From a virus (Duplodnaviria; Heunggongvirae; Uroviricota; Caudoviricetes): a stretch of 4,287 nucleotides of DNA. The notes under the pieces were generated by a model, which saw only the letters and a program-made list of their open reading frames with translations, was not told where the DNA came from and searched no databases. The stretch is taken from IMG/VR virus record IMGVR_UViG_2531839235_000007. One strand, 5' to 3'. Both the position numbers and the translations under genes were made by a program. Shown in pieces: positions 3,047-4,287 of this stretch (positions are counted from its first letter, which is position 1; every line of letters starts with the position of its first letter).

Positions 3047-3604
3047 ATGACCACTATTACCAAAGATCGACTGCTGACAATCCAGCATTGGCGCGAAACA
3101 TACGGACCGGGTAGCAACGTTGTGCTTCCAGCAGAAGAAGCGGAAGAGCTGGCACGGATTGCGCTGGCATCACTGGCAGCAGTATCGGATGAACGAGCAG
3201 CCTATGAATTATTTATGGAGAAGCGTTTCGGAGAATCTGTAGATCGCCGCAGAGCAAAAAATGGCGATAGAGAATACATGGCATGGGATATGGCGCTTGG
3301 CTGGATTATCTGGTGTCACCGCGCCGCCATGCTTCAGGCTGGAAACTTTCGGGAAAATAAGGGTTCGTCAACCAATAATTTTCGGATAATCTCGGAAACG
3401 TCAACCAACTCTCCGGCAATCCCTGATGAGGTGTTGTCCGCAATCCTGAAGGTCGCCAGGCTTCGTGCAGATTTCGATGCTTCTGAAGTGGACAGGCGAG
3501 GTATCGGTAGTTGTCTGGATGAGGCCGAGCAAGAACTTATCGTTACCATTAACGAATACGCCAGTCAGATCGCAGTAGAAGCGACACAGGGGGAGAACCA
3601 ATGA
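3047..3604 (+). CDS. Hypothetical prophage protein (185 aa)
   Basis: Track ORF 3047..3604. ATG with AAGGTGA upstream, 2 nt after the preceding stop. Long uninterrupted frame in a same-strand gene chain. I recognise no family. Confidence 0.75.
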   Translation: MTTITKDRLLTIQHWRETYGPGSNVVLPAEEAEELARIALASLAAVSDERAAYELFMEKRFGESVDRRRAKNGDREYMAWDMALGWIIWCHRAAMLQAGNFRENKGSSTNNFRIISETSTNSPAIPDEVLSAILKVARLRADFDASEVDRRGIGSCLDEAEQELIVTINEYASQIAVEATQGENQ

Positions 3605-3678
3605 GCCGGCCAGATGCATTTGCAGGCGTTGCTATAGCTATTGCTTTTCTAGTATATGTTATTTGTCGGTGGGGGTAA
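3601..3678 (+). CDS. Candidate 25-aa hydrophobic micro-protein (MSRPDAFAGVAIAIAFLVYVICRWG)
   Basis: Hand-translated; too short for the ORF track. ATG at 3601 overlaps the upstream TGA (ATGA), with GGGGAGA about 8 nt upstream. The peptide is one predicted transmembrane helix. Stop TAA at 3676-3678. Confidence 0.35.
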   Translation: MSRPDAFAGVAIAIAFLVYVICRWG

Positions 3679-3713: not shown

Positions 3714-3818
3714 ATGTCGGATGATATTTCACTGGCAATGGAAGGTGCGCTGGCTGTTATTGCTGTTGTGGGCGTTTACTGCCTGGTTGTGTTTTTGATG
3801 GATCGACTAGGGAACTGA
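3714..3818 (+). CDS. Candidate 34-aa hydrophobic micro-protein (MSDDISLAMEGALAVIAVVGVYCLVVFLMDRLGN)
   Basis: Hand-translated. ATG at 3714 with AAAGGAGGG at 3703-3710, 3 nt upstream. Acidic N-terminus, then one predicted transmembrane helix. Stop TGA at 3816-3818. Confidence 0.45.
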   Translation: MSDDISLAMEGALAVIAVVGVYCLVVFLMDRLGN

Positions 3819-3826
3819 ATTCATTA

Positions 3827-3848
3827 CGATATGGGAATTCCCATATCG
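3827..3848. repeat. 22-bp perfect palindrome CGATATGGGAATTCCCATATCG
   Basis: The sequence equals its own reverse complement. It sits between the 34-aa micro-ORF stop and the predicted hok promoter -35. No U-tract follows on either strand. Confidence 0.6.
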
Positions 3849-3860
3849 GGTAAAAACGGT

Positions 3861-3888
3861 TTGCGGTAAAGCGAGAGTTAAGTAGAAT
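3861..3888 (+). promoter_or_regulatory. Candidate sigma70 promoter for the hok/mok mRNA
   Basis: -35 TTGCGG at 3861-3866 and -10 TAGAAT at 3883-3888, 16-nt spacer. This places the transcript start near 3892-3897, where the 5' sequence complementary to the window's 3' end begins. Confidence 0.4.
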
Positions 3889-3906
3889 TGCTGCGGGTGC
3901 TTGAGG

Positions 3907-3942
3907 CTGTCTGCCTCGGGCATGCCACCGTAAGGCAGACAG
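3907..3942 (+). other. Stem-loop in the predicted hok mRNA leader (10-bp perfect stem, 16-nt loop with an internal GGCATGCC palindrome)
   Basis: CTGTCTGCCT at 3907-3916 is the exact reverse complement of AGGCAGACAG at 3933-3942. The loop contains the self-complementary GGCATGCC at 3919-3926. Confidence 0.5.
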
Positions 3943-3944
3943 AG

Positions 3945-4015
3945 AAAAGCCCCAGTTAACATTACGCGTCCTGCAAGACGCCTAACATTAATCTGAGGCC
4001 AATTTCATGCTAGAC
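3945..4015 (-). ncRNA. sok: Candidate Sok-like antisense RNA (coordinates approximate)
   Basis: In hok/sok loci the antitoxin RNA is antisense to the mok translation-initiation region. On the - strand there is a weak candidate promoter: -35 TTGCCT (+ coordinates 4050-4045), 17-nt spacer, -10 TAACCT (4027-4022). A T-rich run on the - strand near 3949-3941 could mark the 3' end. I could not define a clean terminator hairpin. Confidence 0.3.
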
Positions 4016-4219
4016 ACATGTAGGTTAGCCTCTTACGCGCCGAAAGGCAAGGAGAAGCAGGTTATGAAGCAGCAAAAGGCGATGTTAATCGCCCTGATCG
4101 TCATCTGTTTAACCGTCATAGTGACGGCACTGGTAACGAGGAAAGACCTCTGCGAGGTACGAATCCGAACCGGCCAGACGGAGGTCGCTGTCTTCACAGC
4201 TTACGAACCTGAGGAGTAA
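4007..4219 (+). CDS. mok: Mok-like leader ORF, in frame with and containing hok (70 aa)
   Basis: Track ORF 4007..4219. ATG at 4007 with CTGAGG about 8 nt upstream. The N-terminal extension MLDTCRLASYAPKGKEKQV resembles the chromosomal MokC extension as I remember it. Confidence 0.55.
   Translation: MLDTCRLASYAPKGKEKQVMKQQKAMLIALIVICLTVIVTALVTRKDLCEVRIRTGQTEVAVFTAYEPEE
4064..4219 (+). CDS. hok: Hok/Gef family type I toxin (HokD/RelF-like, 51 aa)
   Basis: ATG at 4064 with AAGGAGAAG upstream. MKQQKAMLIALIVICLTVIVTALVTRKDLCEVRIRTGQTEVAVFTAYEPEE has the Hok signature: N-terminal transmembrane helix, the conserved TRK-LCE-R motif and a periplasmic tail. It is close to Gef/HokC and RelF/HokD as I remember them. 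Stop TAA at 4217-4219. Confidence 0.9.
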   Translation: MKQQKAMLIALIVICLTVIVTALVTRKDLCEVRIRTGQTEVAVFTAYEPEE

Positions 4220-4275
4220 GAGACCTGGCGGGGGAGAAATCCCTCGCCACCTCTGATGTGTCAGGCATCCTCAAC

Positions 4276-4284
4276 GCACCCGCA
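4276..4284 (+). other. Candidate fbi (fold-back inhibition) element at the hok mRNA 3' end, pairing with the 5' end at 3892-3900
   Basis: GCACCCGCA at 4276-4284 is the exact reverse complement of TGCGGGTGC at 3892-3900. Long-range 5'-3' pairing of this kind is the known tac/fbi mechanism of hok mRNAs. The window ends at 4287, so the element may be incomplete. Confidence 0.45.
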
Positions 4285-4287
4285 CTT

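Follow-up and report, generated by a model that had tools for sequence, protein, structure and literature searches.

A lambdoid prophage toxin locus with a highly probable tac/fbi fold-back stem in its hok-family mRNA

Folding back of hok mRNA through pairing of its tac and fbi elements has been known since the 1990s, and the stem described here is an instance of that mechanism in a family already known; the finding is sound but unremarkable. The hok/sok (parB) locus of plasmid R1 is arranged as a promoter, tac at +1, a leader hairpin, ucb, the mok Shine-Dalgarno (SD) sequence, the Sok target, mok/hok, a 3' hairpin, fbi, and a terminator. The R1 model, which comprises tac/fbi pairing, the ucb/dcb switch, and 3' processing, has been summarized together with a metastable 5' structure of the mRNA (PMC9841398). 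The locus analyzed here has the same order of elements, and its tac is likewise predicted to switch from fbi to ucb; it resides on a prophage rather than on a plasmid, and it is known from its sequence and from predicted folds, whereas the R1 mechanism is experimental. A prophage-borne relative, hokW-sokW of the Stx2 prophage Sp5 (933W type), has been established by experiment as a type I toxin-antitoxin pair, in which a 71-nt antisense RNA, sokW, is expressed and is complementary to the hokW leader (PMC8621323). In the same work HokW was found to be 44% identical to R1 Hok, shorter hokW RNAs were observed but left unidentified, and tac/fbi pairing was not addressed (PMC8621323).

We analyzed a stretch of 4,287 nt (hereafter the window, numbered from its first nucleotide), and the conclusion that a complete type I toxin-antitoxin locus of the hok/mok/sok type lies in it, as part of a lambdoid prophage, is essentially right. 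The leader matches the Rfam model RF01794 at 3895–4069 on the + strand with 115.6 bits (gathering score 59), covering model positions 1–157. The HokD/HokW-like toxin gene hok (4064–4219, + strand) encodes 51 aa that match the Pfam model PF01848 (HOK_GEF) with 82.9 bits (cut-off 22) and PHROG 251, "MokW-like host killing," with 114.7 bits, and the gene is annotated as hokD in E. coli genomes. In the open reading frame list, a 70-aa mok frame (4007–4219, + strand) is in frame with hok and shares its stop codon; relatives of mok are annotated as MokC/MokW-like. The mok SD read from the sequence, GAGG at 3995–3998 (+ strand), precedes the ATG at 4007 by 8 nt and has the motif reported for R1 mok (PMC9841398). 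Related DNA is present in 4,722 of 5,426 complete E. coli genomes, the best matches being 99.2% identical to the window, and other E. coli contigs that encode an identical 70-aa Mok protein differ from it at 6–8 positions within 3851–4287. The window Hok is 98–100% identical to proteins named HokD (relF), about 82% identical to a HokC (gef) sequence, and 43% identical to an R1 Hok sequence. MokW-like loci of Stx2 phages, likewise prophage-borne, are about 92% identical to 3851–4287, encode a Hok of the same PHROG, and have tac and fbi elements identical to those of the window, whereas their upstream flank differs. A search for homologous proteins yielded near-identical Hok/Mok proteins only and added no diversity.

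The promoters of the locus were assigned by eye and from conservation, and a consensus promoter scan of the sequence found neither of them. The predicted hok promoter consists of a −35 element, TTGCGG (3861–3866, + strand; by eye), 16 nt upstream of a −10 element, TAGAAT (3883–3888, + strand; by eye and conservation), which is followed by a 6-nt spacer, TGCTGC, and then by G3895. Because a −10-like hexamer (TAGAAT, TATAAT, TACAAT, or TATATT) precedes the predicted first G by an equal distance in all aligned homologues, we place the +1 position at G3895. On the − strand, a Sok promoter is predicted by eye at 4022–4050, with a −35 element, TTGCCT (4045–4050), a 17-nt spacer, and a −10 element, TAACCT (4022–4027); this site falls at the position of the AGCCTCTTAC...CAAGG block, which is conserved in the family alignment. 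The predicted Sok-like antisense RNA of about 75 nt (3941–4015, − strand), whose ends we infer, folds with −32.9 kcal/mol (z = −6.2) into a long hairpin that is preceded by a single-stranded 5' tail and followed by a U-rich 3' end. All genes upstream of hok are on the + strand, and a terminator-like site is found at 3769–3785, upstream of the hok promoter.

The sequence TGCGGGTGC occurs once on the + strand, at 3892–3900, and once on the − strand, at 4276–4284, where the + strand reads GCACCCGCA, its exact reverse complement; the pair appears in the inverted-repeat listing as 9 nt with 100% complementarity and 375 nt between the arms. A preliminary description of this DNA had read the two 9-mers as the tac/fbi fold-back pairing of hok mRNA and had taken them as independent support for transcript boundaries near 3892 and at or beyond 4285. 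The complementarity is real and its identity as tac/fbi stands, as judged from the RF01794 match, position, conservation, and folding, but its limits must be redrawn: the conserved stem comprises 12 bp between 3895–3906 and 4269–4281. As a measure of the stem the 9-mer misses the inner 6 bp, in which TTGAGG (3901–3906) pairs with CCTCAA (4269–4274) across a single bulged C4275, and it includes 3 outer bp that fall outside the predicted transcript; altogether, 15 positions are complementary in the DNA and 12 within the predicted transcript. Likewise, the start near 3892 is better moved to G3895 on account of the −10 box 6 nt upstream, the spacing of which is constant in homologues. The corrected elements, which are offered as coordinates for annotation of the window, are tac (GGGUGCUUGAGG, 3895–3906, + strand), the 5' end of the hok mRNA and 5' fold-back arm, which coincides with the start of the RF01794 match and pairs in the minimum free energy (MFE) fold, and fbi (CCUCAA-C-GCACCC, 4269–4281, + strand), the 3' fold-back arm, which is identified from folds and alignment. 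The outer TGC of the 5' 9-mer (3892–3894, + strand) lies upstream of the predicted +1 and is probably not transcribed from the hok promoter, whereas the GCA with which it pairs in the window (4282–4284, + strand) lies within the predicted transcript. Compared with R1, the stem opens with three G–C pairs rather than two, has U–A rather than C–G at position 4, contains one bulged C, and has an inner arm of another sequence, and the window leader lacks the approximately 20-nt insertion of R1-type leaders.

In contigs with an identical Mok an intrinsic terminator follows, the sequence continuing as ...CACCCGCACTT AACCCGCTTCGGCGGGTTTTGTTTTTT; the part of the preliminary description that had the transcript reaching to or beyond 4285 is thereby borne out. 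The terminator probably lies just past the end of the window, which comes 6 nt after the stem; AACCCGCTTCGGCGGGTTTTGTTTTTT also directly follows fbi in the Sakai prophage Sp6. No terminator hairpin adjoins fbi in the relatives L001 and Stx2 phage II. In the Stx2-phage version ...CACCCGC is followed by a ygiW/ydeI-like gene, in contrast to the hairpin of the window's lineage. The terminator that follows repeats the ACCCGC of fbi in its 5' arm, and its 3' arm reads GCGGGU, as does the 5' end at positions −2 to +4. The 3' end of the transcript is predicted to lie in the U-tract after AACCCGCTTCGGCGGG.

Folding of the full-length RNA recovers the stem with a probability of 1.0, with or without the borrowed terminator, and in the MFE fold of 3895–4287 nt 1–12 pair with nt 375–387 (z = −8.3). 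Truncation at 4268, 4262, 4255, or 4250 shifts the 5' end onto 3947–3953 (P(G2:C58) = 0.94). The element involved is the ucb or anti-SD box, GAAAAGCCCCAG (3944–3955, + strand), which is predicted to pair with the region of the mok SD when the RNA is full-length and with tac when it is truncated. The resulting tac/ucb stem (3895–3902 with 3947–3953) is also the outer stem of the Rfam consensus and the stem of the RNAalifold consensus; position 4 (U3898), which pairs with A4278 in tac/fbi, is bulged in it. The mok SD is paired with 3949–3955 in the full-length fold and lies after truncation inside a predicted hairpin at 3995–4032 (+ strand), corresponding to the mok SD/dcb stem and Sok target hairpin, which forms when the folded RNA stops at 4262 or 4255 but not when it is full-length. 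Removal of the 3' element is thus predicted to refold the 5' end onto 3947–3953 and to free the mok ribosome-binding site, as published for R1. In the nascent RNA, a metastable 5' hairpin (3897–3923, + strand; nt 3–13 with 19–29) that would hide tac is predicted, folds of the first 30–48 nt having −18.8 to −22.5 kcal/mol, and it matches the metastable 5' structure described for R1 (PMC9841398). Both full-length and truncated folds contain a stable leader hairpin (3907–3942, + strand), for which RNAalifold shows compensatory changes (columns 17/68: AU 29, UA 25, GU 7, GC 2), and all folds contain a GC-rich stem-loop in the 3' UTR (4227–4248, + strand), which is also recovered by RNAalifold with compensatory changes (columns 391/423: GC 45, AU 13; columns 398/410: AU 33, GC 20). 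By analogy with R1 (PMC9841398), the latter is likely to be the 3'-terminal protective hairpin of the processed mRNA. A second long-range helix predicted in the window, 4007–4025 with 4249–4268, has 53.9% paired cells compared with 30–49% in slid controls and falls in a gap-rich region.

Conservation was assessed in 64 hok loci from Escherichia, Shigella, Kluyvera, Photorhabdus, Pantoea, Mixta, Sodalis, Erwinia, Enterobacter, Buttiauxella, and others, which were found with a 3-sequence Hok alignment and anchored by the Rfam leader match alone. The tac/fbi pairing is kept in 58 of these loci and displays compensatory changes: the fbi core GC[AG]CC[CT] is present in them, with 9–14 bp per locus, and MAFFT aligned the 3' element at columns 459–474 without structural input. 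In these loci the core lies 352–400 nt (median 375.5) from +1. Position 4 and its partner form C–G in 30 loci, U–A in 28, and U–G in 4, with one mismatch, and 82.3% of cells in the tac/fbi columns are paired across the 64 loci compared with 36–69% when the partner columns are slid. Whole arms have been replaced in Mixta and Sodalis (GGGUGCUCUGGAUC with GAUCCA-U-GAGCACCC) and in Photorhabdus (GGGCGCUUGAGA with UCUCAAGCGCCC), and in Citrobacter G11A is matched by a C-to-U change on the partner. In R1-type loci (L064, L066, and L077), the same columns of the alignment hold GGCGCUU and its partner (G)AAGCGCC. Loci of the hokC type (L019–L027) have the same tac as the window and, at the aligned columns, the fbi CUUCAA-C-GCACCC, so that a G–U pair stands in the inner arm where the window has G–C; their leader lacks the 3966–3981 hairpin insertion. 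The 3' element is lost in L020, L049, L051, and L067, among which L020 and L051 are hokC-type copies. Pairs of G and U are frequent in the stem (pair 11, GU 27 and GC 21; pair 9, GU 15), which fits an RNA of the + strand and not DNA. Most stem positions are near invariant, changes on both sides occurring in only 3 of 12 aligned pairs, and the shuffle control does not set the number of covarying pairs apart from chance, 442 of 500 shuffles reaching it. The long-range tac/fbi stem does not emerge unaided from RNAalifold, which on the 64-locus alignment returned the local tac/ucb consensus; this is expected because tac/ucb and tac/fbi pairing are mutually exclusive. These 64 loci give independent confirmation that prophage and chromosomal copies from many genera retain the stem together with the covariation at position 4. 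We also compared binding of each 5' end to its own and to other 3' UTRs (mean −20.1 vs. −17.8 kcal/mol; own 5' end best in 20 of 66) and dropped this test as evidence, since it discriminates poorly when 5' classes differ by 1–2 nt and G–U pairs are tolerated.

That the inverted repeat forms the tac/fbi stem by which a hok-family toxin mRNA of a lambdoid prophage folds back on itself is, in our judgment, highly probable, and two readings that deny it any role in RNA appear far less credible. The 9-mer on its own is weak evidence, because some exact 9-nt inverted repeat occurs in 335 of 2,000 dinucleotide shuffles of the 396-nt region 3892–4287, and a functionless repeat that happens to lie near the ends of the hok locus might be imagined. 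Such a coincidence is extremely improbable: a 9-nt inverted repeat linking the first and last ~20 nt of the region arose in 1 of the 2,000 shuffles, the pairing extends to 12 transcribed bp, it is co-located in 58 of 64 loci, and it shows both the C–G/U–A exchange at position 4 and wholly replaced inner arms in some genera. The duplex between nt 1–14 of the predicted mRNA and the 3' UTR has an energy of −21.5 kcal/mol, which none of 100 3' UTR shuffles attained; in many loci this test is weak, the real duplex being only 2–3 sd stronger than those with shuffled 3' UTRs, because G+C-rich 14-mers readily find partners. The arms might alternatively act at the DNA level, as inverted repeats at the termini of a small hok cassette that is mobile, and serve recombination rather than RNA folding. 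The module is indeed mosaic: homology to Stx2 phages begins at about 3851, that to P1-like phage hok loci spans 3883–4281 (the match starting at position 84 of a query that begins at 3800), and that to plasmid hokD loci spans 3890/3892–4281, so that the homology shared with P1-like phages and plasmids begins at about the −10 box and stops at the last base of fbi, and relatives diverge directly after 4283. We nevertheless regard the cassette as hardly tenable, given that the common G–U pairs of the stem would be A–C mismatches on the other strand or in DNA, that the 5' arm coincides with the promoter-defined +1 and has a local second partner in ucb, and that no target-site duplication was seen in the window sequence.

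Two further readings accept the stem and differ on its extent or present use. If transcripts began upstream or read through from phage genes, the working stem in this lineage might comprise 15 bp (3892–3906 with 4269–4284), in keeping with the inclusion of 3892–3894 in the exact 9-mer and with the + strand orientation of all upstream genes. We consider this unlikely. All three outer pairs (3892–3894 with 4282–4284) are kept in 7 of 62 homologues, namely close relatives of the window and one Pantoea locus, and are missing in the other 55; each position is paired in 39–52%, which is near chance, and the closest relatives, L001 and Stx2 phage II, have GCG in place of GCA at 4282–4284, that is, G rather than A at 4284. 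The spacing of the −10 box, moreover, indicates G3895, and the terminator-like site at 3769–3785 lies upstream. It is similarly unlikely that the locus is an inactive relic like the chromosomal hok copies of E. coli K-12, with a stem devoid of present function. Earlier work, as cited in a recent preprint, found that chromosomal hokA, hokB, and hokC gave no post-segregational killing (bioRxiv 10.1101/2025.08.07.668861), and the four homologues listed above lack the 3' element; the window, however, has an intact −10 box, tac, ucb, mok SD and frame, hok frame, Sok promoter-like site and hairpin, and fbi, and the related prophage hokW-sokW, whose MokW-like Stx2-phage counterparts are 92% identical to the locus, is a working toxin-antitoxin pair (PMC8621323).

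For the 12-bp tac/fbi stem, the following mechanism can be proposed. It combines results of the present analysis (the elements themselves, how they are conserved and covary, and how they are predicted to fold) with features carried over by analogy from plasmid R1, namely where the transcript ends, how it is trimmed and kept untranslated, and what Sok does. The mRNA would start at about G3895 and extend past the window end to the terminator hairpin. Pairing of tac (3895–3906) with fbi (4269–4281), about 50 nt past the hok stop codon, would close the whole RNA into a loop. In this closed form ucb (3944–3955) would mask the mok ribosome-binding site, GAGG at 3995–3998, so that neither mok nor the translationally coupled hok would be translated and the Sok target would be buried. 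Slow 3' exonucleolytic trimming, as in R1, would then remove fbi, whereupon tac would pair with ucb (3895–3902 with 3947–3953) and the mok SD would be released into the 3995–4032 hairpin. The refolded RNA would be a target for Sok and be destroyed or, once Sok had decayed, become translatable. Because prophage hokW-type loci, from which the truncated hokW RNAs have been described (PMC8621323), carry the intact set of tac, fbi, and ucb, the R1 model is directly testable there. A refinement that we regard as quite improbable is a longer clamp, in which the three extra pairs would form only in RNAs begun upstream of the hok promoter, such as transcripts running on from the co-oriented early phage genes upon induction, giving a 15-bp lock, and in which the 3' arm of the terminator would in addition compete with tac for fbi. 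Were this true, the longer clamp or the competition by the terminator would represent lineage-specific tuning of the unlocking of the toxin mRNA during the phage cycle.

The hok toxin gene at 4064–4219 (+ strand) encodes a 51-aa Hok/Gef protein that matches PF01848 with 82.9 bits and PHROG 251 ("MokW-like host killing"), and the 70-aa mok frame at 4007–4219 overlaps it. The Rfam model RF01794 is matched from end to end by 3895–4069 (+ strand) with 115.6 bits (gathering score 59) and reaches only 18.2 bits on the reverse strand. Although named "sok" or "sok antitoxin", this model describes the leader of the hok mRNA and not the antisense RNA, since its match is to the sense strand and has the hok start codon at its end. 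Phage genes (lambda P-like, DUF1627, DUF4406, and Ead/Ea22-like) lie upstream of hok, and in the closest genomes the locus is flanked by replication genes on one side and DUF968, rusA, and Q on the other, as in lambdoid prophages such as Sakai Sp6. Related DNA, mostly annotated as hokD, is carried by 4,722 of 5,426 complete E. coli genomes, and loci of Stx2-converting phages with 92% identity are annotated as MokW-like; hok genes are reported to be enriched in prophages (bioRxiv 10.1101/2025.08.07.668861). The hok/sok system of plasmid R1 has the same elements in the same order with the same predicted switch, and among relatives studied experimentally the nearest is the hokW-sokW locus in prophage Sp5, which functions as a type I toxin-antitoxin pair (PMC8621323). 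Nothing in the window locus departs from the hok family.

The preliminary description pointed out that TGCGGGTGC at 3892–3900 (+ strand) is the exact reverse complement of GCACCCGCA at 4276–4284 and took this as the fold-back pairing between tac, the 5′ end of the hok mRNA, and fbi, an element of its 3′ UTR. Both copies were located in the window, and the observation is confirmed. An exact 9-nt inverted repeat anywhere in the 396-nt stretch appeared in 335 of 2,000 dinucleotide shuffles and one linking both ends in 1 of 2,000; taken alone, the 9-mer is weak evidence. The complementarity extends inward, with CCTCAA at 4269–4274 complementary to TTGAGG at 3901–3906 and C4275 as a single bulged base. 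At the outer end, 3892–3894 and 4282–4284 give 29, 24, and 32 pairings per position among 62 loci, which is near chance; all three pairs occur in only seven of these loci (the window, close relatives, and one Pantoea locus), and of the relatives whose downstream flank differs, the two closest have G at 4284. These pairs fall 5′ of the predicted start and are probably fortuitous. Because of that position and their near-chance frequency, we take the working stem to be 12 bp with one bulge; the 9-mer holds six of these pairs and three others.

A −10 hexamer, TAGAAT, is found at 3883–3888, 6 nt 5′ of G3895, and all homologous loci examined have a −10-like hexamer equally spaced from the predicted first G. 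Loci of the R1 type, which lack one G at the 5′ end, also lack one C in the 3′ element, which thus tracks the predicted start. Because of this tracking and the conserved −10 spacing, we infer that +1 is G3895 or possibly G3896. Six nucleotides separate the stem from the window end; the next bases in Sakai Sp6 and in contigs encoding an identical Mok protein, AACCCGCTTCGGCGGGTTTTGTTTTTT, form an intrinsic terminator. The proposal of an RNA ending at or beyond 4285 therefore stands, whereas its 5′ end moves from 3892 to the predicted G3895. Homology to hok loci of P1-like phages spans 3883 to 4281 and that to plasmid hokD loci 3890/3892 to 4281, so that both blocks run from about the −10 box through the final base of the 3′ element.

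With these corrected boundaries the tac/fbi interpretation is supported. The minimum free energy fold of 3895–4287 pairs nt 1–12 with nt 375–387 (3895–3906 with 4269–4281; z = −8.3) at a probability of 1.0, whether or not a borrowed terminator is added downstream, and the mok SD region (3993–4006) pairs with the anti-SD box ucb (3944–3955). When the RNA is truncated in silico at 4268, 4262, 4255, or 4250, the 5′ end shifts to 3947–3953 with a probability of 0.94, and in the RNAs cut at 4262 or 4255 the mok SD becomes part of a new hairpin (3995–4032). The isolated first 30–48 nt fold into a 5′ hairpin that hides the same 5′ bases. These three predicted states would correspond to the closed (tac/fbi with ucb on the mok SD), open (tac/ucb), and metastable (5′ hairpin) forms of R1 (PMC9841398). 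This mechanism has been described before, and by analogy with R1 the transcript ends, 3′ trimming, and translational silence are predicted for the window locus; the identity of truncated hokW RNAs of Sp5 was explicitly left open by the authors (PMC8621323). A candidate second long-range helix is predicted just inside tac/fbi (4007–4025 with 4249–4268), where it would mask the start codon of mok together with some of the Sok target; in a gap-rich region of a 64-locus alignment it is paired in 53.9% of cells versus 30–49% in slid controls.

For this alignment, 80 hok loci were fetched, one genome per species, and the leader was placed in about 70 of them by the Rfam model, which is blind to the 3′ UTR; 64 nonredundant RNAs cut from the leader start were aligned with MAFFT. 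The 3′ element falls at columns 459–474 without structural input. Its core, GC[AG]CC[CT], is kept in 58 of 64 loci, 352–400 nt from the start (median 375.5), and forms 9–14 bp with its own 5′ end in each of them. Among the six exceptions, one is shifted by a single alignment gap (L060), one has an assembly gap (L040), and in L020, L049, L051, and L067 the 3′ region is replaced or decayed and the core absent. Overall, the 12 stem pairs of the window are standard pairs in 82.3% of cells, versus 36–69% with partner columns slid by 1–3.

The preliminary description suggested looking for covariation in homologous loci. Position 4 and its partner are C-G in 30 loci, U-A in 28, and U-G in 4, with one locus unpaired. 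In the competing tac/ucb stem, position 4 is the sole 5′-arm base that is bulged, which explains why only this base varies freely; the other 5′-arm bases must fit two partners and are nearly invariant. Whole inner arms are swapped in Mixta and Sodalis (GGGUGCUCUGGAUC with GAUCCA-U-GAGCACCC) and in Photorhabdus (GGGCGCUUGAGA with UCUCAAGCGCCC), and in Citrobacter G11A is offset by a C-to-U change in the partner. Since G-U pairs are frequent in the stem, the constraint acts on the + strand RNA. Two-sided changes affect just 3 of the 12 aligned pairs, and in shuffle controls of this 12-pair, 64-locus alignment the number of covarying pairs was not distinguishable from chance. RNAalifold chose the local tac/ucb stem over tac/fbi, and an energy test of each 5′ end against 3′ UTRs of other loci discriminated weakly.

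On the − strand, a promoter-like site for a putative Sok comprises TTGCCT (complement of 4045–4050), a 17-nt spacer, and TAACCT (complement of 4022–4027). The RNA predicted to span about 4015 to 3941 folds (z = −6.2) into a long hairpin preceded by an unpaired 5′ tail and finishes in a U-rich stretch; it would match the 71-nt sokW of Sp5 (PMC8621323). A GC-rich hairpin at 4227–4248 shows compensatory changes across the alignment and may correspond to the 3′-terminal hairpin that protects processed R1 mRNA (PMC9841398).

Several further features were observed around the locus. A mosaic breakpoint lies right past fbi (window 4282–4287; E. coli 90-3040, 5483–5530; Stx2 phage II, about 735–790): the latter two split from the window lineage past CACCCGC into a ygiW/ydeI-like gene and lack the terminator hairpin that Sakai Sp6 and the identical-Mok contigs have. 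ACCCGC occurs both at the 3′ end of fbi (4279–4284) and in the 5′ arm of the downstream terminator (seen in L083 and L002), and the terminator 3′ arm GCGGGU therefore equals the sequence at 3893–3898; despite this repeat, folding favors tac/fbi alongside the terminator hairpin. The last two bases before the predicted +1 (3893–3894) are GC in nearly all GGG-start loci (compared across L003–L056), unlike the variable remainder of the spacer.

Just 5′ of hok, two small ORFs (3601–3678 and 3714–3818) specify hydrophobic products, 25 and 34 aa long, with no match in Pfam or PHROG; relatives list the 34-aa product as a hypothetical protein. Between the end of the second and the hok promoter lies a perfect 22-bp palindrome, CGATATGGGAATTCCCATATCG (3827–3848), present among 86 loci only in the two closest relatives; Stx2-phage homology starts right past it, at about 3851, and it could be an operator, a hairpin, or a recombination junction. 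CRISPR repeats (RF01317) occur about 100 nt 5′ of the hok leader in Erwinia sp. CGal63 and Kalamiella (L059, 250–397; L075, 362–389). Leader pairs in Photorhabdus temperata (L037, 556 and 1185, within about 630 nt) and in an Enterobacteriaceae MAG (L076, 1 and 521) indicate that hok loci can duplicate in tandem. Near-identical E. coli/plasmid-type loci on short contigs of assemblies assigned to Veillonella, Acinetobacter, Xanthomonas, Ferruginibacter, Streptomyces, and Oscillibacter (L012, L022, L029, and L064–L066) most likely reflect contamination or mis-binning. Finally, TACG at 4202–4205, the hok Tyr47 codon TAC plus the next base, sits in the loop of a small predicted hairpin (4197–4211); according to a recent preprint, this motif lets TadA edit hokC, hokD, and hokE (A-to-I), turning Tyr into Cys.
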